The notes below the pieces were generated by a model. The model searched no databases, had not been told where the DNA came from, and saw only the letters and a program-made list of their open reading frames with translations. Source: a virus. From it: 64,000 nt of DNA. The stretch covers positions 1-64,000 of IMG/VR virus record IMGVR_UViG_3300010413_000016. One strand, written 5' to 3'. Made by a program: the position numbers and the translations under genes. Below are positions 8,081-64,000 of the stretch, piece by piece (the stretch's first letter is position 1; each line of letters opens with the position of its first letter).

Positions 8081-8109
8081 TTGACAACTTTTTCTCCTTG
8101 TGGTATGGT
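8081..8109 (+). promoter_or_regulatory. sigma70-type promoter
   Basis: TTGACA-17 bp-TATGGT before clamp loader. Confidence 0.55.
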
Positions 8110-8133
8110 TTCACCACAAGGAGAAAAATAATA

Positions 8134-9069
8134 ATGAACTTAGATAAGCACACACTCTGGACCGAGAAGTATCGTCCCAGAACTCTCAAAGAATACATTT
8201 TCCATGATGAGCGACAGCAATTGTCAATCGAAAACATGGTAGCAAATGGTACTATCCCGCACTTATTACTGTCTGGCGTTCAGGGTAGTGGTAAAACTAC
8301 ATTAGCACAAATTATCATTAATGAATTAGGCGTTGATCCAATGGATGTGTTGACGCTGAACGCATCAGATGAGAATTCTGTTGATGTCATGAGAGACAAG
8401 ATTAGGAATTTTGTATCCACATTTGCAATGGGAGATTTTAAAATTGTCCATCTGGAAGAAGCGGATTACGTATCATTAGCAGGACAAGCGGTTCTGCGTA
8501 AGTTGATGGAAGATGAATACGCTGATTCAGCCCGATTTATACTGACTTGTAACTACGAAAGCAAAATAATGCCTGCTATTCGATCCCGCTGTCAACAGTT
8601 CCGTTTTAAAGCTCCTGATCGAACTGATGTTACTGAATATATCGCTGGAATTTTGTTAAGTGAACACATCAAATTTGATTTAGAGTTGTTGGACAAATAC
8701 ATTGTAGTTGGTTATCCCGATGTTCGCAAAATCGTAAACTTAATTCAGCAAAACTCTTCTTCGGGATCTCTATTATCTTTATCCCAAGAAACGGAGACGG
8801 GCGATTATAAATTCGCATTACTTGATTTGATAGAACGAGATGCGTGGGAAGATGCTAGAGCATTGGTATGCGAAAGTGTTGCAAATGAAGAATGGGAAGA
8901 CTTGTATCGATTCCTATACGAAAATCTAGACAAAGCACCAAAATACTCAATAAGAGACAAGTGGGAGGCAGGAATTGTTGTCATTGCTGACCACTTATAT
9001 AAACATTCAATTGTTGCCGATCCAGAGATCAACGCATCAGCAATGTTTATAAGACTATCACAAATTTAA
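8134..9069 (+). CDS. Clamp loader AAA+ subunit (gp44/RFC-like)
   Basis: LWTEKYRP, GVQGSGKT, LNASD, EEAD and SRC motifs. Confidence 0.92.
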   Translation: MNLDKHTLWTEKYRPRTLKEYIFHDERQQLSIENMVANGTIPHLLLSGVQGSGKTTLAQIIINELGVDPMDVLTLNASDENSVDVMRDKIRNFVSTFAMGDFKIVHLEEADYVSLAGQAVLRKLMEDEYADSARFILTCNYESKIMPAIRSRCQQFRFKAPDRTDVTEYIAGILLSEHIKFDLELLDKYIVVGYPDVRKIVNLIQQNSSSGSLLSLSQETETGDYKFALLDLIERDAWEDARALVCESVANEEWEDLYRFLYENLDKAPKYSIRDKWEAGIVVIADHLYKHSIVADPEINASAMFIRLSQI

Positions 9070-28113: not shown

Positions 28114-28192
28114 TTTGTAGTTGACCATTGACATCCAACTCCTATTGTTGTAGTATATGAATATAACTATAACAATAGGAGTTTTTCTTTTT

Positions 28193-28567
28193 ATGGTAAA
28201 AGAAGTATTCTGCACACTTCAAATAGAAGGTACACACAACTGGCCTTCCTGCCCCTTTGACGAAGTAGCTTATCTTCGTGATCCACACAGACACGTATTT
28301 CATATTAAAGCTCATAAACCCGTATTTCATGACGATCGTGACGTTGAGTTTATTATGCTCAAACACAAGATTCAAAAATTTTTGATTGGAAAATATTGGT
28401 CAGGCTACACACCTCGAGAAGAATTTTCAGGAACAGCTGTTTGTGAATTTGGTTCCATGTCTTGTGAGATGATAGCACAAGAACTTATCGAAGTATTTGA
28501 CCTTTCTCGTTGTGAAGTATCCGAAGATAATGAGAATGGCGCCATCGTAACGAACGTTACCGACTAG
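28193..28567 (+). CDS. dpdL: QueD-paralog T-fold protein, DpdL-like (putative CDG decarboxylase)
   Basis: LRDPHRHVF matches the LxxxHRHxF signature; SCEMIA; VSEDNENGA; TTGACA-17-TAGTAT promoter at 28128-28156. Confidence 0.7.
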   Translation: MVKEVFCTLQIEGTHNWPSCPFDEVAYLRDPHRHVFHIKAHKPVFHDDRDVEFIMLKHKIQKFLIGKYWSGYTPREEFSGTAVCEFGSMSCEMIAQELIEVFDLSRCEVSEDNENGAIVTNVTD

Positions 28568-55289: not shown

Positions 55290-55817
55290 GGTTGGTTCCT
55301 TTTTGTATTATATAGGGAAACAAAAACTCATGGTTATTTTTGTGCCCTCCCATTTTCAGAACGATTTTTTTTTTTTAAAAATTTTTTCGCACCACGATTT
55401 TTCGATGGCGGGATATTTTCCGGGGGGGGGAGCAGAAACTCTAATCTAAGATCCATAATATTAACGGGAGAGATGATTGTAGAAAATGTATGGGAACGTG
55501 TGGCGGAAATTGGCGGGCGATGTTTTCAGGGTGAAAAATTTGGTATACGTTGAACCTAGCAAAGAAGGGTATAATCGCCCATCGGTGTTCTTAGGGACCT
55601 GGCCTCTCGATTTTACCAGATTCTATTTTCAAAGTCAACTGTTGACTTTTAGTTAGTGGGAGGAGCCGAGTCTCCTTCCACTCAGATCATAGCATTCATG
55701 TTGTCTTCTTCATCAAGATGGTGTACGACTTGCTACGTGACTTGTCTCCTCCCTATCAACTGTCGTGATTAGATTGATTGAAAGATATATTATCTCTCAC
55801 CCTAACTATGAAGTCAA

Positions 55818-55916
55818 CTAGTACCCCATACCGACTGCAGCCACAGATGCTGCCATCAAGGTGATGATGGGAGTAACGATAACAACTGCCACAATGATGA
55901 TCACTTTCTGTTTCAT
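55818..55916 (-). CDS. 32-aa single-TM peptide, paralog of 63828-63926
   Basis: MKQKVIIIVAVVIVTPIITLMAASVAAVGMGY; own promoter and RBS. Confidence 0.7.
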   Translation of the reverse strand: MKQKVIIIVAVVIVTPIITLMAASVAAVGMGY

Positions 55917-55980
55917 CTCATCTCTCTTTTCTCTCAACTGTTGAAGCTATTATAGCTCCAACAGTTGAAGAAGTCAACTG

Positions 55981-56316
55981 TTATTTTAATTCATACTTGC
56001 TAAACATATTGACGTCAATATCAGATGACAGAATTTGTTCAACTTCTTGTTTGATCTTGTTCATTCGTTTTGTGACAATGTCAACACTCACAGAACGTGA
56101 TTGATTGATATAGTAATCACTAGATTCAATATAGTTTAAATTGAATTGTTCTGTGAATTTGACGTCTGCATCATGAAAGTCAGACACAGTTGAATCTTCG
56201 TTCATAACAAAGATAATGAAGTCGTCATCAACACTACTGATGATACAGTTGTCTATGTTTGTATCAACTTCATGTTCAATAAACAGATAATTGAACGATA
56301 TGAATACTTTTTTCAT
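55981..56316 (-). CDS. Early hypothetical protein
   Basis: ATG at 56316 after promoter. Confidence 0.6.
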   Translation of the reverse strand: MKKVFISFNYLFIEHEVDTNIDNCIISSVDDDFIIFVMNEDSTVSDFHDADVKFTEQFNLNYIESSDYYINQSRSVSVDIVTKRMNKIKQEVEQILSSDIDVNMFSKYELK

Positions 56317-56377
56317 GTGATCTCTCAGTTCTCTCAACTCAGAGATACTATCTCATGATTCATGATTGAAGACAACA

Positions 56378-56410
56378 GATGGAGAGATTCAGATAATGAA
56401 TCTCTCCATC
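56378..56410 (-). terminator. 14-bp perfect hairpin after gene, terminator-like
   Basis: gatggagagattca-N5-tgaatctctccatc. Confidence 0.55.
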
Positions 56411-56418
56411 AACTGAAC

Positions 56419-56910
56419 TTATTTGCTCAGTTTCTTTTTGATGTTGTAGTGATATGTAGATGCACCTGCTTGAGTCATGTCAAGTTCTGCCATGAAACGA
56501 GTGATAACATCTTTTCTTGCAGGATGTTGACCATCAACTATCATACTGATGTATATTTCTTCTGCAATTTGTGACTTTGATACTTTCTTTTCTTTTTGTA
56601 CTTTGACCGTTTCTACTTTCGGCTTTGTATCTTTGATCTTACGAACTTTCTTCTGTTCAGTTATCTTTTCTTGTTGTGCAATAAATTCAACAATTTCCTT
56701 TTCAGTTTCAGTAACTGCATCTTCAACACTCAACATCTTACTGTCAACATGTGACATCATCCATTCTTGTTTGTATTCTTCTTTCCATTGTTTGAATGGA
56801 ATATAATCTTCAGAAGGAAATGATGCGGCTGCTTTCTCTTCTTTATACAGAGTCAGAAGTGAAATGTTATCCGGAAATTGTGATTCGATTTGATTGATTA
56901 CGTGTTGCAT
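56419..56910 (-). CDS. Early protein with C-terminal HTH-like domain (copy 1)
   Basis: HPARKDVITRFMAELDMTQAGASTY; paralog of 59921 gene. Confidence 0.75.
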   Translation of the reverse strand: MQHVINQIESQFPDNISLLTLYKEEKAAASFPSEDYIPFKQWKEEYKQEWMMSHVDSKMLSVEDAVTETEKEIVEFIAQQEKITEQKKVRKIKDTKPKVETVKVQKEKKVSKSQIAEEIYISMIVDGQHPARKDVITRFMAELDMTQAGASTYHYNIKKKLSK

Positions 56911-57060
56911 GTTGTTTTCCTCTCTCAATTGTTGAATCTATTATCTGTCCAGTTGGTCACTTTGTCAACATGTTTCTGAAATTAATTTCAATCGATTCAT
57001 GTTTGTGTGCCAATGAGGACACCATCTAATAAAGAGAGGCTGAGGGCAACAATTAATTTG

Positions 57061-57239
57061 AGCCGATATTTGATCGGCTGATAAGGAGATGTGATTAGAG
57101 TTCCAACTTGATGGTTGGAGATGATGGGTGGATCAATTTGATCACTTCAGATCCACCCATCATATAATAGGTGGAGGCTACAAGTAGCCTCCTGAGTCGT
57201 CCGCCGGGAGAGATGAGAGAGAGGAGTGGCGGACGACTC
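57061..57239 (-). ncRNA. Candidate structured RNA: five consecutive hairpins, the first with an anti-SD loop
   Basis: Stems at 57194-57239, 57173-57192, 57121-57163, 57102-57119 and 57061-57079. Confidence 0.55.
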
Positions 57240-57241
57240 TG

Positions 57242-57415
57242 TTAACTTGCTAACTTCACTGTTGCCATCCCAAGTCCGTAACCGAACGCGAATATTGCGA
57301 TCGAGAGGCCGAGAACAGCTACCTTGGCGTTGTTACCAAGTGCCCCAAAGAATAGGACGATGAGACCTAGCACGAAGGCGACAACCCAGAGGATAACCGC
57401 CATAACTATCATCAT
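57242..57415 (-). CDS. Small two-TM membrane peptide (57 aa)
   Basis: MMIVMAVILWVVAFVLGLIVLFFGALGNNAKVAVLG...; coupled to upstream stop. Confidence 0.55.
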   Translation of the reverse strand: MMIVMAVILWVVAFVLGLIVLFFGALGNNAKVAVLGLSIAIFAFGYGLGMATVKLAS

Positions 57416-57561
57416 GGTTTAGTCCTGCCGTTCCATACTTGTAGAGCAACTCCCGTGAAGAAGCCAGACAAACAGACTAGAGTAGAGATGACATCGTTGG
57501 TGGCAATGTAGGCGCCCATTCCGATAATCACACCAAGTAATCCAAGTACAATTGCTTTCAT
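57412..57561 (-). CDS. Small two-TM membrane peptide
   Basis: MKAIVLGLLG...; internal promoter TTGACA-17-GATACT near 57596-57624 implies this start. Confidence 0.55.
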   Translation of the reverse strand: MKAIVLGLLGVIIGMGAYIATNDVISTLVCLSGFFTGVALQVWNGRTKP

Positions 57562-57620
57562 CCCATCATTCCACTTTTGTCTCTCAACCGATGACAGTAT
57601 CATCCCACTTTTATGTGGTG

Positions 57621-57896
57621 TCAAGCGGCCCTTTTCAGCTCAGGATGGTTAGTTGCCATCCAACGAACAAGGTCAGGAATGTTGTTGCTGAACTCTTCGA
57701 ACGGAACGGTCGTGTGGCTGAAGATTAGACCACCGCTGAGGAAGTCAATGTCGATCGTATTGTTTGCGTAGTTGATACAAGCTTTGCAGATCGAGTGTGC
57801 CTTGTTACGATCAGCTACATGAATGTACGTGACCTTCGCTGCAGGATAGTTGTTCGCCAAGTAGTCGTACATGTTGCCATTTGCTTCAACTTGCAT
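57621..57896 (-). CDS. Early hypothetical protein
   Basis: Promoter and GAGAGG RBS. Confidence 0.6.
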   Translation of the reverse strand: MQVEANGNMYDYLANNYPAAKVTYIHVADRNKAHSICKACINYANNTIDIDFLSGGLIFSHTTVPFEEFSNNIPDLVRWMATNHPELKRAA

Positions 57897-57955
57897 GTTA
57901 GTGTCCTCTCAATTGTTAGAGGAATTATAGCTCAGCCACTCAAAAGAGTCAACAG

Positions 57956-58171
57956 CTATTTGGATATTGCCCACATCGACGTGAGCGCATACAATGACCA
58001 CCCAAGCCCTTCGAAGAAGACAAACACAATCAGTGCTGATTTCAGTGGAATCAGCCACTTAACGTGATAGTCGCCATACGCTTCGATCTTGTTGTGATCT
58101 TCAAACAAAATGAATCTGGCATATTCTATCAAGATCAATATGATCAAGAACTCAAAATGGATGGCGTTCAT
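57956..58171 (-). CDS. Small membrane protein
   Basis: Two hydrophobic segments; GGAG RBS. Confidence 0.55.
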   Translation of the reverse strand: MNAIHFEFLIILILIEYARFILFEDHNKIEAYGDYHVKWLIPLKSALIVFVFFEGLGWSLYALTSMWAISK

Positions 58172-58203
58172 GTTTTCTTCTCCTTATTGGAGGAGTTATT
58201 CTC

Positions 58204-58611
58204 CTACAACACACTTTCAGCATCAACAGCTGAAAGTGGAAAACTTCCGACATAACGAGCTCGATTTTTACGGAAGACAGCTTGATATTTGCCAATGTTC
58301 ACGTCTTCGTGAGCATCAATTTGGTACACTTTAACAGAAAAGTTACTTTCATCCATTGCTTGACGAACACGTGATGATATTGTCCAGTCTTTAAGTTGTT
58401 GTTTGGAGCCAAATCCAAAGAACCAATTACGCCGATCATCATATTCGATGCTATCCCACATGAGGAAATGGTCATCTTCTGGCACTGGGTGTTTTGGGTC
58501 GGCGATCGAAGATACATATTCAAGGTCACCAAATGATACTGACCGATTGGTGGAATTGCGGTTGTACATTCCTGTACCCTTGGCATGTTCGACGCGTAGA
58601 ACTGTAATCAT
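58204..58611 (-). CDS. Early hypothetical protein
   Basis: Start MITVLRVEH; HPVPEDD...FFGF. Confidence 0.65.
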   Translation of the reverse strand: MITVLRVEHAKGTGMYNRNSTNRSVSFGDLEYVSSIADPKHPVPEDDHFLMWDSIEYDDRRNWFFGFGSKQQLKDWTISSRVRQAMDESNFSVKVYQIDAHEDVNIGKYQAVFRKNRARYVGSFPLSAVDAESVL

Positions 58612-58674
58612 TTGTGATCTCCTCTCAATTGATGGGGCCATTATAGCCCCACCCTGAGTTGAAGTCAACGGGAG

Positions 58675-58989
58675 TCACAGACGTTTCAGTTCAGACTCCA
58701 AACGATTTCGAAAATTCTTATATTGGTCGGTTTCGCTGTACTTCATGTAGAAGTCATGGTATGCCGGGCGAGGAGGTTGGGACAACAACTTCTCCCTGCC
58801 GATTGTGATGTCGAATTTCATCGTTTTCCACGAGCTTTGAAATTCATACGATACGCTACCAAACACCTCGATTCCTTTCAGAATCATAAGGGAGCCAGTG
58901 TTAGCCCAGTTGCGTTCTTGTTCGGACTCAAATCCACACTGGCTAATCAGGTCCATCAAATCTTTCAGGATACGGGTTTGCATTGACAT
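58675..58989 (-). CDS. Early hypothetical protein
   Basis: Promoter and GAGGAG RBS. Confidence 0.65.
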   Translation of the reverse strand: MSMQTRILKDLMDLISQCGFESEQERNWANTGSLMILKGIEVFGSVSYEFQSSWKTMKFDITIGREKLLSQPPRPAYHDFYMKYSETDQYKNFRNRLESELKRL

Positions 58990-59041
58990 GGCGATCTCCT
59001 CTCATTTAATAGAGATATTATAGCTCCATCCTATGATGAAG

Positions 59042-59272
59042 TCAACTGATTTTGTAAATCAGCAGGTCAGATTCTTCCCCAGCCTCACAGGCAAAGATTT
59101 CATCTACTTGTCCGAAGGTTGAGTATTTGAGGTAGGCTTCTTGTTTTTCATGTGAGTCTTCAATCTCATAAAAGATGAAGGCTGCTTGCTGATGGGTATC
59201 AGCCTCAATCACCCGGTGACTAGATTCGCGAGTGTCATAACGATCGAACCAAATTACTAAGAACTGTGCCAT
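59042..59272 (-). CDS. Early hypothetical protein
   Basis: Promoter upstream. Confidence 0.6.
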   Translation of the reverse strand: MAQFLVIWFDRYDTRESSHRVIEADTHQQAAFIFYEIEDSHEKQEAYLKYSTFGQVDEIFACEAGEESDLLIYKIS

Positions 59273-59341
59273 CTCTCTTCAATTCTCTCTTGTGTTAATT
59301 GATGAGACCAGCATAGCACATCCTCGTCTTAGAGTCAACGA

Positions 59342-59860
59342 TTATTTGAATTCAAACGGACCATTAAACTTCTGCTTGTTGATAGTAACAGAAGTGATAG
59401 AAGAGATTTCGAAAGTTCGGATGATGACTTTGTTTTCCAGCCCACCCTGACTCGATTCTGGCTTACTTTCAGGAATACCTTCGATTTGATCTTTGGGAGT
59501 TACGACACCATCTACTTCGTAATGAGTAGTTCCCTTGTTGAGGAAGATGACTTCGAGGTAGTGTTTCTCTTTATATTCTACGAAAGGAATTCCTTCCAGC
59601 CGAGTTCCCCAAGTACGAGGACCAACAGTAAACGACTCAGGATCTTTACCTTCTTTACCGAGACGACGTTTCACCATCTCACCGTAGCCACTTTTCTCTT
59701 TGTTCTGAAAGACCATGACATTAGAGCCAACGGTTACCTTCCGAACGCGACCTTGCAGAAGATTATGACGACCACCACGAAGCTTGACGTTAGTGGAAGT
59801 GTCAATGCTGATGAAAGTTGCGCCATTAACAGCATCCATGATTTTGCGGATATTGTTCAT
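59342..59860 (-). CDS. Early phage protein
   Basis: Start MNNIRKI after GAGGAG; ORF-track N-terminal extension is promoter sequence. Confidence 0.7.
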   Translation of the reverse strand: MNNIRKIMDAVNGATFISIDTSTNVKLRGGRHNLLQGRVRKVTVGSNVMVFQNKEKSGYGEMVKRRLGKEGKDPESFTVGPRTWGTRLEGIPFVEYKEKHYLEVIFLNKGTTHYEVDGVVTPKDQIEGIPESKPESSQGGLENKVIIRTFEISSITSVTINKQKFNGPFEFK

Positions 59861-59920
59861 TCGTGATCTCCTCTCAATTGATGGGGCCATTATAGCCCCA
59901 TCCTGAGTTGAAGTCAACCG

Positions 59921-60400
59921 TTAGCTGAGTTTCTTTTTGATATTGTATTGATAAGTAGAAGCACCAGCTACTGACATGTTCAGTTCATTCATGAAACGTT
60001 GTACTACTTCCTTTCTTGCAGGATGGTTACCATTGACCATCATTTCCTGATAGACCTTCAAAGCACGTTCAGCTTTGGTTGGAACTTTCTCTTTCTTGAC
60101 TTTGACCTTAGGAGTACTTTTGATCTTCCGTACAGTTACCTTTTTCTCAGGTTTTGCCTGTTGTTGCTTTTGATCGTTTTCCATTTCTTCTTCAGACAAC
60201 TTGACAGCAGTCTCAGCATCAACCAATTTTGAAGTTGAGTGAGTCTCCAACCATTCTACTTTGTATGACGCTCTCCAATCCTGAAAGGAAGGAAACGGAT
60301 CTGAAGGAAAATCCATCTGCTCTTTCTCAATCTTGTATAGAGCAAGCAGGTTGATGTTGTTGGGGAATTTAGTTTCGATTGATTTGATTTGCTTCGCCAT
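59921..60400 (-). CDS. Early protein with C-terminal HTH-like domain (copy 2)
   Basis: Paralog of 56419 gene over its full length. Confidence 0.75.
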   Translation of the reverse strand: MAKQIKSIETKFPNNINLLALYKIEKEQMDFPSDPFPSFQDWRASYKVEWLETHSTSKLVDAETAVKLSEEEMENDQKQQQAKPEKKVTVRKIKSTPKVKVKKEKVPTKAERALKVYQEMMVNGNHPARKEVVQRFMNELNMSVAGASTYQYNIKKKLS

Positions 60401-60558
60401 GCGAAATCCTCTCTCTCGTTTGTTAACTGTTGAAGCTATTATCTTCTAAGTTGGGTCTCATGTCGACAAACTTTTCAATTTATTTTTCGTTGAAACACTT
60501 GCTGCATGTGATAGAGAGACTATCCAATAAGATGGGCCTGTTGTCAACAGGAACAGCG

Positions 60559-60692
60559 AAAAAAATGGGTGGCAGCAAAATGAGAGAGGAGCTGCCACCC
60601 ATAAGGGCAAGTTATCCGCCCTCAACATGTATTAATAATGCAACCGACAAAGAGAGTCCACAGGTTATGGGTTGAAATGCTTTGTCGGTTGC
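60559..60692 (-). ncRNA. Candidate 3'UTR-derived RNA ending in a terminator with anti-SD loop
   Basis: Stems 60640-60692, 60604-60622 and 60565-60602 (loop UCCUCUCUCAUUUU) plus U tract. Confidence 0.55.
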
Positions 60693-60693
60693 C

Positions 60694-60954
60694 TTAAACT
60701 GGTTTCTTGGCGACCTGCTCCATTATATAATCGCGCAGATCGTCTTTCATTTCTTCTTCACAATCATTGAAGTCGAACTTTTCAGTTCCATCAATGTTTG
60801 CAGCAAAAACGTTTGCCACACGTTGTGAAGTTTCATCAGAGAACCATTTGACGTTCAGACCAAGCTCATCAGCGAGTTCTTGACGTGTGTACGTTTGTTC
60901 TGCATTGCCGAACTGATCAGCAGGAACATGAAACTGCGCATTTGGATCTGACAT
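60694..60954 (-). CDS. Early hypothetical acidic protein
   Basis: Promoter and RBS. Confidence 0.65.
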   Translation of the reverse strand: MSDPNAQFHVPADQFGNAEQTYTRQELADELGLNVKWFSDETSQRVANVFAANIDGTEKFDFNDCEEEMKDDLRDYIMEQVAKKPV

Positions 60955-61014
60955 CTAACTTCTCCTCTCATTGGATGGAGCCATTATCGCTCCATCCTGA
61001 GTTGGTGTCAACAG

Positions 61015-61449
61015 TTATTCAGAACACTCTTTCTTGCAAGTATTTTGATATGTAGATGCACCTGCTTGAGTCATGTCAAGTTCTGCCATGAAACGAGTGA
61101 TAACATCTTTTCTTGCAGGATGTTGACCATCAACTATCATACTTTGGTAGATGGCAACTGCTTTTTCCTTTTTACTTGTACCATCTGTTGACTTTGTATG
61201 AGGTTTACGTTTGGTAGAGGTAGAAGTTGTCACTTCTTTCTCTTTTTTAGGAAGTGCAATTCTCCATTCTTTTGGCTCAGGAATTTCTTTGAGTGTGCCA
61301 TCATCATGAGGAATCTTTACAGTAGACCCATTAGGAGAAATCTCGATAATGGCATGCACTGCAGAGTAGTCAACTACTTTGCCATTATGAGTGAACTCAC
61401 CATTCTCATCTTCACCCTTCCACTCAACAAACTGACCTTTCGTAAACAT
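61015..61449 (-). CDS. Early protein: beta-rich N-terminus plus HTH-like C-terminus (copy 3)
   Basis: Start MFTKG; C-terminal DNA identical to 56419 gene. Confidence 0.72.
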   Translation of the reverse strand: MFTKGQFVEWKGEDENGEFTHNGKVVDYSAVHAIIEISPNGSTVKIPHDDGTLKEIPEPKEWRIALPKKEKEVTTSTSTKRKPHTKSTDGTSKKEKAVAIYQSMIVDGQHPARKDVITRFMAELDMTQAGASTYQNTCKKECSE

Positions 61450-61665
61450 TTTTGATTCTCCTCTCTCAACTGATGAGTCCATTATAGATCCACCGGTTGA
61501 AGAAGTCAACACAAATCATGAAATTTTTCTGTTGTTCCCAACTTCAACTATGTTGAAGGTGTGTTGATGTGAGTGATCAGATCTCATAACTGAATACTAT
61601 CTTCGTGATCAAATGTAGTGATAGAAGTGGATATATGCCACACTTCTAGCCTCTATTTTCTACCA

Positions 61666-61965
61666 TCAGTGGTGGAAATCATCATCAAAGAACGCGAACA
61701 GATACACCCCTTCTTCCTCGAGATTGTCAGAGTTAAATGCTAATCCCTTTTTGTGGTCACCTTTGTACTCAACGACAAAGTCTCCCAGCTCTGGATAGTC
61801 AACTTTGGGATGCCCAGCTTCTTGCATCAGTTCTACCAATTTGGCTGTGTCTCGTTCACTGATGCATGCATCGCCTGTGGACAAACTGAATGCATCGATA
61901 TCAATTACTTGAGTAACGATATCGAACATCTGTTGTGCCCACTCATTCAGAATCATGCCAGACAT
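61666..61965 (-). CDS. Early hypothetical acidic protein
   Basis: Promoter and RBS. Confidence 0.65.
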   Translation of the reverse strand: MSGMILNEWAQQMFDIVTQVIDIDAFSLSTGDACISERDTAKLVELMQEAGHPKVDYPELGDFVVEYKGDHKKGLAFNSDNLEEEGVYLFAFFDDDFHH

Positions 61966-62055
61966 CTCATATCTCCTTCCTCAACTGATGATGCTACTAT
62001 CCCACATCATCACAAGAAGATCAACAACATCCCACTACCATCCCACTTTCGTGGA

Positions 62056-62203
62056 ACAAAAAAAGAGGCCGACATGTGCCAGCCTCGAAAAGGAGGACGC
62101 TTGTGGTCCTCAGGGGGAAGAAGTGGTCGGCGGCCAAGAGAGAGGAGAGAGGGCGGCCGCCAACCGGGTAAACTTTCAAGCTACATCGTTCTCCTCAACC
62201 GAT
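62056..62203 (-). ncRNA. Candidate sRNA with start-stop ORF and anti-SD hairpin
   Basis: Promoter TTGCAT-17-TATAGT (62210-62238); GAGGAG RBS; ATG-TAG; three hairpins, the last with a U7 tract. Confidence 0.7.
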
Positions 62204-62227
62204 GACTCTACTATACTTTATTCCGTG

Positions 62228-62506
62228 TTAGGATGCAACAGGCTCCACCATGAAAGTTGTCAGCCAGTCGCATACATCTTCGTGGGTGAGCAGCTCAATA
62301 CCTTCCTCACCATCGCGAACGTACCAACTACATTCGTGGGCACATAGAGTGCTTGTTCCAACAATGTCAGTTACACTAAACTCGTTGGCTACCTCGATGA
62401 ACTGAGGAATCGTCAGTGATGAGCCATCTGAGTCGTTGTAGGCAATATCGCCATCAAGAGTATACTTGTGTCCATTGCCGAGTGTCGCTGCTCCATAAAT
62501 GTGCAT
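62228..62506 (-). CDS. Early hypothetical acidic protein
   Basis: Start MHIYG after cassette RBS. Confidence 0.65.
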   Translation of the reverse strand: MHIYGAATLGNGHKYTLDGDIAYNDSDGSSLTIPQFIEVANEFSVTDIVGTSTLCAHECSWYVRDGEEGIELLTHEDVCDWLTTFMVEPVAS

Positions 62507-62565
62507 TTGCTTTCTCCTCTCAATTGATGGGGCCATTATAGCCCCATCCTGAGTTGAAGTCAACG

Positions 62566-62877
62566 TTACATTGACCAATAGGTCTCTGAAGCAGGAGAGC
62601 ATGAGTTAGGAGTGTTGATCGGTTCCTGATACTCTTTGCCGCTCATCAGGTTGGTGCGAGTAACCATCTTCTCGATGTTCTCAGCAAAGTCACGACTGTC
62701 AGCAATCGCGTAGTCGTCCTTCGTAGCACCATCGTGGAGCTTACCTTTGTTGTCAAGACGAGTCAGCGCCGCTTTGGCTGCACGCTCAGTCTTGTAGCTC
62801 TCAACCCAACATCCCCACGACTTGCTCGGCGCTTTGAGGATCAGGGTGGTTTCTTTGTGATAGATTACGTAGCTCAT
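62566..62877 (-). CDS. Early phage protein
   Basis: YKTERAAKAALTR...NLMSGKE...PASETYWSM. Confidence 0.7.
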   Translation of the reverse strand: MSYVIYHKETTLILKAPSKSWGCWVESYKTERAAKAALTRLDNKGKLHDGATKDDYAIADSRDFAENIEKMVTRTNLMSGKEYQEPINTPNSCSPASETYWSM

Positions 62878-62939
62878 TTTGTTTCTCCTCTCTCAAGTGT
62901 TGAAGTAATTATAGCCCAACACCTGAGAGAAGTCAACGG

Positions 62940-63167
62940 TTAGAGTTTCAACTCTTCTTTCAGCGCATCATAGATTGCCTGGCGAAATTCTCGAGTCTCT
63001 TCGGAGTACATGTCCTTGATATTCTCGTCGATCCAGTCGGCGATCTCTTCACCATCTTTGATGCCTCCATCACTGGCAAGCCACTCGTACGGACTTTCGA
63101 TTGGGTTCTCGTAGTGGGCCATCATCAGACAGGCAATGTGTTTGGCTGCCTTTGTCATTGTGTTCAT
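62940..63167 (-). CDS. Early hypothetical protein
   Basis: GAGGAG RBS. Confidence 0.6.
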   Translation of the reverse strand: MNTMTKAAKHIACLMMAHYENPIESPYEWLASDGGIKDGEEIADWIDENIKDMYSEETREFRQAIYDALKEELKL

Positions 63168-63222
63168 TTATATCTCCTCATTTGATGAGGAGCGTCGCTC
63201 CTCATCAAACTGTTGACAACGT

Positions 63223-63537
63223 TTACTTTTCGCTGTTTTCGAGATGCTCTTTGTAGTACTCGATGGCAGCTTCAACGCGATCGTCACCATCGATGCCGTA
63301 GATCTTGTAGTCGCCCATCGTGGTGGTGTTCTCATCATTGATATACTCGAACCCACCATAGTACTCGAGTGAGCGGATATTGTGTGCCTTGGTGATGATC
63401 AGCTCGTCATTAAGGTCAACGAACACGTGACCAGCACGTGAGTCAAGGCCGATCTTGTCAGCACGAACGTATGGAAGATCCTCAATGACGTTGCCAAGCA
63501 TCTCGTTTGCTTCGTCGATTACGTTCAGTAGTTCCAT
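63223..63537 (-). CDS. Early hypothetical protein
   Basis: Start MELLNV; LEYYGGFEY. Confidence 0.65.
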   Translation of the reverse strand: MELLNVIDEANEMLGNVIEDLPYVRADKIGLDSRAGHVFVDLNDELIITKAHNIRSLEYYGGFEYINDENTTTMGDYKIYGIDGDDRVEAAIEYYKEHLENSEK

Positions 63538-63592
63538 TGCTTCTCTCCTTTCGTGATTGATGGGGCCATTATAGCCCCATCCTGAATTGAAG

Positions 63593-63814
63593 TCAACGTT
63601 CGATGTACTCACCGTTGAGCCAAGCCTGCATTACCTCTACAGTTTGACGTACTTGATCTTCGGTCATTTGGATGGAAGCAGGAGAACGGTCTCCTGGTAC
63701 GATACCTTGGTTCAGTTGAAGACAACGACCTGGTGTGATACCACGGAATGAAGTCAACATTACTTCTTGAACGTTTCCAGTTTCATCGATTGCTGATTTC
63801 AGATTGATGCTCAT
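63593..63814 (-). CDS. Early hypothetical protein
   Basis: GGAGG RBS. Confidence 0.6.
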   Translation of the reverse strand: MSINLKSAIDETGNVQEVMLTSFRGITPGRCLQLNQGIVPGDRSPASIQMTEDQVRQTVEVMQAWLNGEYIER

Positions 63815-63827
63815 GATGCATCCTCCC

Positions 63828-63926
63828 TTAGTACCCCATTCCAGTGGCAGTGAACAGGGCGAGTCCAGCCAGGATGGTCGGAGTGGTGACTACAACTGCT
63901 GCGATGATGATTACTTCCTCTTTCAT
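63828..63926 (-). CDS. 32-aa single-TM peptide, paralog of 55818-55916
   Basis: MKEEVIIIAAVVVTTPTILAGLALFTATGMGY; own promoter and RBS. Confidence 0.7.
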   Translation of the reverse strand: MKEEVIIIAAVVVTTPTILAGLALFTATGMGY

Positions 63927-64000
63927 GATGATCTCCTCTCACTATGAGTACATTATTGCTCAACCACACCAAGAAGTCAACAGTGGTTGGGATCTTGGCC

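Follow-up and report, generated by a model that had tools for sequence, protein, structure and literature searches.

Early promoters with embedded hairpins in an uncultured jumbo-phage-related contig resemble the promoter stem-loop cassettes of T4-type phages

Why should the -10 boxes of a run of phage early promoters lie in the loops of inverted repeats, and which molecule would such repeats serve? The question arises from the IMG/VR virus record IMGVR_UViG_3300010413_000016, a contig of 74,769 bases of which bases 1-64000 form the window analysed here, and in which a minus-strand block of small genes (32-250 amino acids, aa), spanning contig positions ~55.6 to 72.0 kb, is preceded gene after gene by near-consensus sigma70 promoters. 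The original prediction, made from the letters of the window, was that in most of about 20 such promoters the spacer that separates the -35 box from the -10 box is complementary to the sequence just past the -10, and it proposed a cruciform or pre-melted promoter, a protein operator or an RNA stem in read-through transcripts as explanations. We found that the hairpin cassettes are real and beyond chance, that their imperfect pairs are biased towards the sense strand, and that they appear, by the likeness of their layout, to be an array of PeSLs (early promoters combined with a stem-loop), a known kind of cassette, in a new jumbo-phage clade.

An array of promoters with the -10 box in a hairpin loop

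Promoter-like sites are about twice as frequent in 54-64 kb (42) as in shuffled sequence (21.4 ± 4.3), and the strong ones lie nearly all on the minus strand. Requiring at least 10 of 12 matches to the two boxes and a 17-nt spacer, we collected 34 near-consensus sigma70 sites on the minus strand of the whole contig, 20 of them inside the window; 11 of the 34 match TTGACT/TTGACA-17-TATAAT at 12 of 12 positions (either -35 hexamer allowed), and the ungapped alignment yields the consensus G-TTGACTTC...G.ttG.GC-TATAAT-ggcccCAtCA.TTGAGAg.AgA. These promoters occupy intergenic gaps of 52-74 nt between small ORFan genes, with the upstream stop codon 0-15 nt from the -35 or within it and the ATG 25-31 nt past the -10, such that each cassette reads in the order stop codon, TTGACT, 17-nt spacer, TATAAT, a discriminator and start region whose conserved core is C-A-t-C-A, a ~22-nt leader carrying the Shine-Dalgarno (SD) sequence GAGAGGAG, and ATG. 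Because coding sequence extends to the -35, the AT tract upstream of it is weak (63% AT over 20 nt vs 55% for the region), far weaker than the A-runs of phage phi1. One 62-nt version of the unit recurs in nine copies, 92-97% identical, before unrelated genes.

Within the cassettes, spacer position -1-k usually pairs with position +2+k after the hexamer, leaving a loop made of the -10 and one further base, and in a few cases this register is displaced by 1-3 nt. Even stemless cassettes conserve the 3' arm, which comprises discriminator and start region; this indicates that the spacer is the part that adapted. To score the pairing we used a helix finder that is free of register and symmetric for G-T and A-C, and found that a helix (score of at least 7) formed by the spacer with discriminator and start sequence straddles the -10 in 13 of the 34 promoters, compared with 1.1 ± 0.9 in 100 shuffles of the arms (maximum 4) and 2.9 ± 1.6 in partner swaps, where a 5' arm is joined to the 3' arm of another promoter. 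The pairing therefore exceeds that arising from shared consensus; once copies of one cassette are taken into account, nine distinct stems are left. When the -10 was forced to stay unpaired, 12 of the 34 segments still folded at z <= -3.8 relative to arm shuffles, and in a fixed register of 14 pairs across all 34 promoters 52.5% of cells were paired vs 46.6 ± 1.5 in shuffles (0 of 500 as high) and 32-43% in slid registers. As the shuffled columns still reach 46.6%, the consensus itself must be partly palindromic. All stems that had been named in the original prediction are present at or near the positions given for them (Table 1), and so is the one near 55778, but it is weak and AT-rich.

Table 1. 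Promoter cassettes, stems and intrinsic terminators of the early region (window coordinates unless stated; dG and fold E in kcal/mol)
Feature	Coordinates	Strand	Elements	Folding
Stem near 55778	near 55778	-	weak, AT-rich	dG -4.0, z 0.18
Cassette p55977	55917-55977	-	-35 55972-55977; -10 55949-55954 in loop; stem 55934-55968, 14-17 bp, helix WWWgWWWWWWWWWW; before 32-aa peptide gene	RNA dG -25.8, z -5.7; DNA hairpin sense -14.5, antisense -12.7
Stemless promoter	56911-56968	-	after long non-coding gap with terminators	E -0.8, z 0.66
Promoter	57897-57952	-	without straddling stem; same cassette at contig 64256-64312 before unrelated gene	
Cassette p58668	58612-58668	-	GGTGGGGC/GCCCCATC stem, arms 58646-58653 and 58631-58638, one G-U; family copy 58631-58668, 1 mismatch different	E sense -19.9, antisense -14.6; z -4.6
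Cassette p59045	58990-59045	-	interrupted G-U-rich stem around -10, WWWgWWg..WWWW	E -7.6, z -1.8
Promoter	59273-59338	-	no significant stem	E -2.3, z 0.8
Cassette p59917	59861-59917	-	GATGGGGC/GCCCCATC stem (copy 59880-59917), arms 59895-59902 and 59880-59887; before 172-aa ORFan	dG -25.8, z -5.1 (z -5.6 with -10 forced unpaired)
Stemless promoter	60401-60466	-	after terminator 60568-60602; keeps AGCTTCAACAGTT 3' sequence, spacer without complement	E -0.4
Intrinsic terminator	60568-60602	-	12-bp stem and U-run	dG -23.6, z -5.9
Cassette p61011	60955-61011	-	GGATGGAGC/GCTCCATCC stem, arms 60989-60997 and 60973-60981; double, compensatory change vs GGGGC/GCCCC family	dG -22.3; z -6.3 with -10 forced unpaired
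Cassette p61509	61450-61509	-	imperfect 14-position stem 61465-61499, 2 G-U and 2 A-C, helix WWagWWgWaWWWWW	E -11.0, z -1.5
Weaker promoter TTGATC-17-GATAGT	61966-62024	-	9-bp stem TGATGATG/CATCATCA, 61986-61993 and 62005-62012	dG -17.0, z -2.4
Intrinsic terminator	62065-62086	-	9-bp GC stem and T7	
Cassette p62563	62507-62563	-	promoter and stem (copy 62526-62563) identical to p59917; gene behind unrelated	
Cassette p62936	62878-62936	-	16-pair stem 62889-62930, 3 G-U, shifted register	dG -27.8, z -6.4; sense -21.7, antisense -16.1
Hairpin-only cassette	63168-63219	-	TTGTCA at -35 place, GACGCT instead of -10; perfect 13-14 bp stem 63181-63209 in usual place before SD; 75-aa gene behind, 62940-63167, ATG at 63167	dG -24.7, z -6.2
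Cassette p63596	63538-63596	-	GATGGGGC/GCCCCATC stem; family copy 63559-63596, 1 mismatch different; TGA of upstream gene within -35 TTGACT	z -4.2
Promoter	63927-63980	-	weak G-U-rich stem only	E -7.1, z -0.6
Intrinsic terminator	contig 71217-71247 (L013 7217-7247)	-	13-bp stem and T-run; directly upstream of stemless p71206	

The prediction that G-T mismatches favour the non-template (mRNA-sense) minus strand also held when G-T and A-C were scored equally. Inside the stems of this contig, G-T outnumbers A-C by 13:3 to 16:4 in the fixed register and by 16:2 in the register-free count, and the ratios in three related loci (L140, L166 and L149, described below) are 5:2, 6:1 and 5:0 between them; pooled, these four give 32:5, compared with 56% G-U expected from the composition of the arms (p=1.7e-4). 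Counting the enclosing pairs of RNAfold is unsuitable for this purpose, as loci with A/C-rich leaders then show an antisense bias through spurious long-range pairs. Stems with G-U pairs fold better as sense than as antisense RNA by 3.5-5.6 kcal/mol, and the two strands of the corresponding DNA hairpins differ by only 0.9-1.8 kcal/mol. Along with the hairpin-only cassette, whose perfect stem stands where the promoter has no -10, the G-U excess is comparative evidence that the stem has been kept for a single-stranded molecule of sense polarity, most simply RNA.

Related loci and known promoter stem-loops

Close relatives of the contig were not found by megablast against GenBank phages or by locus searches with single proteins (the 172-aa ORFan behind p59917, and RIIA), and scans for the cassette pattern returned only unrelated promoters in IMG/VR and more than 120 unrelated matches, mostly AT-rich bacterial-type promoters, in metagenomes. 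The 172-aa ORFan (59345-59860, minus strand; without Pfam match) has 461 metagenomic homologues of 55-73% identity and, from its recurrence, appears to be a conserved early protein of the clade; a profile search of IMG/VR with it gave 43 loci, with homologues sitting on jumbo-phage contigs that reach 520 kb in length. Since the proteins of these relatives are only 45-60% identical, orthologous cassettes are not comparable for compensatory substitutions. Their promoter arrays can nonetheless be compared as a whole: L140, L166 and L149 bear sigma70 promoters in which a hairpin spans the -10, yet with unrelated stems and registers, such as GATGGGAGT-ATTAT-ACTCCCATC in L166, GTGAGGAGA...TCTCCTCAC and one stem of 17 bp in L140, and GATGGAGC/GCTCCATC in L149, which also has variants with a displaced 5' arm. 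Straddling helices were scored in 9 of 20 promoters of L140, 14 of 20 of L166 and 7 of 26 of L149 (nulls 0.9-3.6, including those of the contig itself), and in none of the control loci L154 and L163 under the same scoring. In L158, L163 and L165 a short hairpin lies wholly within the spacer, and in L154 and L156 similar promoters have no hairpin. The hairpin is thus a lineage-variable accessory without a fixed placement with respect to the -10, and since phi1 has spacer hairpins as well (see below), it is the presence of a hairpin in the gap, rather than the caging of the -10, that is kept. Among cultured phages, RsoM2USA has zero TTGAC-N18-TATAAT sites and therefore provides no model of these cassettes, and the paper on the PA5oct transcriptome covers promoters and terminators in its main text but describes no promoter-embedded hairpins there.

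To our knowledge, PeSLs have previously been described only in T4-type myoviruses. The contig (23% complete by CheckV) encodes on its plus-strand part helicase, clamp loader, RIIA/RIIB, tail-fibre and 7-deazaguanine genes; its clamp loader is 51% identical to that of RsoM2USA and 45% to those of XacN1 and PA5oct, making jumbo phages its nearest cultured relatives, and its RIIA is 26-32% identical to those of T4-like and KVP40-like phages. On these affinities, the phage that hosts the cassettes is placed outside the Straboviridae and thus outside the T4-type context of PeSLs.

The PeSL parallel, which the original prediction had cited as background, matches the published description feature for feature. 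In the T4-type coliphages RB49 and phi1, PeSLs comprise an upstream stop codon and sigma70-like boxes followed by an SD sequence and a start codon, they lie among ORFans in hyperplastic regions, and their stem-loop is located in the interval from the -35 to the -10 or "overlapping the -10 box", with marked G-T pairs (Arbiol et al. 2010, PMC2839356). Attenuation is supported by one reporter test, in which the stem-loop of PeSL211/210 was placed before lacZ, and recombination within PeSLs has been shown for both phages (PMC2839356); PeSLs have been proposed both as transcriptional insulators of ORFan modules and as drivers of their shuffling. Reading the phi1 ORFan region directly, we found both hairpin types, namely the spacer type (GGGGATCggtGATCCCC before TATAAT) and types with the -10 in the loop (GGGGATAT-AGCATA-ATATCCCC-ATCAA and GGGAGTAG-TAAGAT-ACTCCC-ATCAAG). 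The present cassettes share with the RB49/phi1 PeSLs a near-consensus sigma70 promoter with boxes at ~17-bp spacing, the stop codon at the 5' edge and SD and ATG at the 3' edge, stable stem-loops (folds of -17 to -28 kcal/mol, z -2.4 to -6.4) with G-T pairs on the sense strand, near-identical cassettes repeated in arrays between clustered small ORFans and, with those of phi1, a CCCATCAA-like start region; unlike them, their stems are not polyG/polyC and the AT-rich tract before the -35 is only weak. PeSLs and PmSLs have also been reported from the Vibrio phages nt-1/KVP40 and from PST/T4, in large (245-kb) phages (Comeau et al. 2014, PMC4122927), among them degraded copies in which the -10 is missing but -35 and stem-loop are retained (PMC4122927), the same kind as the hairpin-only cassette found here. 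The promoter consensus of nt-1/KVP40 and PST/T4 differs and is looser, and no middle-mode (Mot-box) variant was seen in the present cassettes. An Rfam search with the cassettes gave no family match.

Possible roles of the hairpin

We favour, at a probability of about 0.6, the reading that these cassettes are of the PeSL type and that their hairpin arises in read-through RNA, serving as an attenuator or 3'-end barrier. Standard sigma70 geometry predicts that transcription begins with the A of CAtCA, ~6-7 nt downstream of the -10, and since this start lies past the -10, the transcript of a cassette's own promoter would be devoid of the 5' arm and form no hairpin. RNA arriving from upstream promoters would carry both arms, provided that polymerases read through, and would fold into a hairpin of 8-17 bp whose loop is the -10 hexamer (dG about -15 to -28 kcal/mol). 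Such a hairpin would mark the 3' border of the upstream cistron and might weakly attenuate cumulative read-through and/or block 3' exonucleases, thereby insulating each gene module, and near-identical cassettes before unrelated genes could in addition supply homology for module shuffling. Stable intercistronic hairpins that may stop 3' exonucleases or define processing sites are familiar from REP-type 3' barriers and the early RNase III sites of T7; in contrast to these, the hairpins here are overlaid on a promoter, and their stems mostly fall short of the length typical of RNase III substrates. The caged -10 is best understood as a side effect of laying an RNA hairpin over the promoter in a very short gap: the gap is filled by fixed signals and too short for a separate hairpin, the spacer and discriminator are the sole free sequence, and the -10, a fixed AT-rich stretch that cannot pair, is therefore left to form the loop.

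Among the options of the original prediction, stems in read-through RNA fit best, because of the likeness to published PeSLs, the sense G-U excess, the promoter-less hairpin, the spacer hairpins of relatives and the enrichment of stems at abutting open reading frames (ORFs). Concerning the latter, stems are commoner where a same-strand ORF ends no more than 20 nt from the -35 (28 of 51 vs 9 of 30; odds ratio 2.8, p=0.039), and three stemless promoters (at contig 71206, 60466 and 56968) follow canonical terminators or long non-coding gaps.

Several observations weigh against this reading. The association with abutting ORFs is modest, and the stemmed promoter at 61986-62012 does follow a terminator. 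One cassette (GATGGGGC/GCCCCATC) accounts for six of the 13 strong stems, and its copies are not independent. The 20 promoters counted in the original prediction are indeed there, but a clear stem is present in ~10 rather than in most, two having a weak stem and eight none; with about half of them stemless, the hairpin must be dispensable. The G-U excess could arise in part from a C-to-T mutation bias on the non-template strand. In phi1, the copy between ORF210 and ORF212 has a spacer-type hairpin, and it is on the PeSL211/210 test that attenuation rests. Finally, the 8 nt after the 13 stems contain a mean of 1.15 T (maximum 2; 0.8-1.4 when the three relatives are included), and without a U-tract efficient intrinsic termination is unlikely. 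The stems thus share with intrinsic terminators a GC-containing hairpin at an RNA 3' end and differ from them in the absent U-tract; since terminators with U-runs (T5-T7) occur apart in the same region, true terminators are elements separate from the cassettes. The cassette hairpins are therefore not canonical terminators, and the most economical reading is that they act as a weak attenuator and/or exonuclease barrier.

A structure at the level of DNA, in which a cruciform extruded by supercoiling or a hairpin of the non-template strand offers a single-stranded -10 to sigma70 region 2, would account for the position of the hexamer in the AT-rich loop of an inverted repeat; DNA hairpins are predicted on both strands (-8.6 to -14.5 kcal/mol), and the G-T bias falls on the strand that sigma binds. 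DNA hairpins are used by some known promoters: those of the N4 virion RNA polymerase are short conserved hairpins read by the phage polymerase, and in Frpo the folding of single-stranded DNA makes the -35 and -10 double-stranded. The cassettes have in common with N4, Frpo and ssi promoters a DNA inverted repeat at the promoter, but unlike the N4 promoters they hold sigma70 consensus boxes in duplex register and stems that vary in sequence and length, and unlike Frpo and ssi they leave the -35 out of the repeat and the -10 unpaired within the loop. By the energetics of cruciforms, stems of 8-9 bp with a 7-nt loop, of which there are many here, are short for extrusion in vivo; the antisense hairpin contains A-C mismatches, so that the thing preserved is not a symmetric four-way structure; in the relatives and phi1, hairpins are placed wholly within the spacer, and extruding them would abolish the -35/-10 spacing; the cassette without a -10 retains its stem; and about half of the equally consensus promoters have no stem. 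The cruciform or pre-melted -10 put forward in the original prediction is thus disfavoured, and we hold it to be very improbable. A protein operator, also put forward, fares worse still. An inverted repeat centred on the -10, with ATGG...CCAT half-sites shared by a sub-family, could let a dimeric repressor of phage or host shut off the early promoters, but the contig has at least nine different stem sequences in several registers and L140 and L166 have quite different ones, the strand-asymmetric G-T pairs would be mismatched half-sites to a protein that reads duplex DNA, and the stem persists without the promoter; we would be surprised if an operator explained these repeats.

The cassettes might also lack any RNA function, being kept alike by recombination or gene conversion with an inherited palindromy that is refreshed by template-switch (quasi-palindrome) mutation. 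This would suit the 92-97% identical 62-nt units before unrelated genes, the palindromic consensus (46.6% pairing in shuffled columns), and a region that is mosaic among relatives, as well as the PeSL recombination known from RB49/phi1. It is unlikely as the sole explanation, given that the partner swaps reveal pairing beyond the shared consensus, that L140, L166, L149 and phi1 have unrelated stems and registers, that neither template switching nor homology would be expected to favour G-U over A-C, and that the hairpin-only cassette is perfectly paired; recombination homology probably coexists with an RNA role. We consider improbable a role in translational control, whereby structure in read-through RNA masks the next ribosome-binding site (RBS) and leaves each gene's own short transcript as the main template for its translation. 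The longest stems do extend, through their outer pairs, to UUGAGAG immediately 5' of the SD core, the cassettes at 57952 and contig 64312 have their discriminator CCUC paired with GAGG, and a similar plus-strand hairpin at 8081-8128 buries an AAGGAG, but the AGGAG core is outside most stems, and the predicted unpaired probability of the SD drops alike with a stem (0.60 to 0.45) and without one (0.56 to 0.42), so that the idea of hidden downstream RBSs, part of the original RNA proposal, was not borne out. A further, speculative possibility, to which we give little credence, is that the looped -10 itself works. Sigma70-dependent pausing is a known mechanism at sigma-dependent pause sites, and a polymerase coming from upstream might pause at the non-template TATAAT through re-binding of sigma70 while the arms fold, which would create an attenuator independent of a U-tract; if so, each cassette would start new polymerases and, with the help of sigma, stop or slow down old ones.

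Neighbouring genes, other hairpins and wider bearing

The early region is itself mosaic, with only 8 of 29 early proteins having a homologue near the shared gene at the 43 related loci, and none of the 10 early proteins tested matched Pfam. This mosaicism and the recurrence of near-identical cassettes before unrelated genes both suit a hyperplastic region whose modules have been shuffled. A 121-nt block recurs near the 3' ends of three early genes of 163, 159 and 144 aa (56450-56570, 59949-60069 and 61046-61166), with 92% identity between the first and third copy, as expected of paralogues or exchanged domains inside the ORFan array. Paralogous hydrophobic peptides of 32 aa are encoded on the minus strand at 55818-55916 and 63828-63926 (pattern MK.(K/E)VIII.AVV..TP...), each preceded by a separate cassette, whose stem has 17 bp in one case and is only weak in the other.

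Hairpins of other kinds are found along the window. On the plus strand, the site TTGACA-17-TATGGT at 8081-8128 has a stem of 14-16 bp across its -10-like box, and the AAGGAG of the clamp-loader gene (8098-9069) lies in the 3' arm, such that this RBS would be buried in read-through RNA and free in a transcript from the embedded promoter. At 28137-28195, also on the plus strand, a hairpin of ~20 bp with a U-run (a terminator) is overlapped by a TTGACA-17-TAGTAT site and holds in its 3' arm the GGAG that precedes the next ATG. GC-rich hairpins of 12 bp on the minus strand at 57194-57239 and 60568-60602 expose pyrimidine loops (CUCCUCUCUCUCAUCUCUCCC and UCCUCUCUCAUUUU) complementary to the GAGAGGAG ribosome-binding sites of early genes, and a third, similar hairpin is located near 62120-62165. 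The minus-strand interval 62056-62238 combines a promoter-like TTGCAT-17-TATAGT, a GAGGAG, an ORF of ATG-TAG only, hairpins and a U7 terminator, and judged by this layout may be a small RNA unit. Lastly, a 10-bp hairpin with a 7-nt loop (CACTTTCAGC/GCTGAAAGTG) covers the last codons of the gene 58204-58611 (58212-58238, minus strand), and the gene that follows it, 57956-58171, has no promoter of its own.

The cassettes open no new class of mechanism. They would widen the range of PeSLs to an uncultured clade of jumbo phages nearer to RsoM2USA, XacN1 and PA5oct, and they bear on the overlay of DNA and RNA signals in compact phage early regions, where lineage-specific variants, with the hairpin across the -10, inside the spacer or missing, provide natural contrasts for testing the role of the hairpin.

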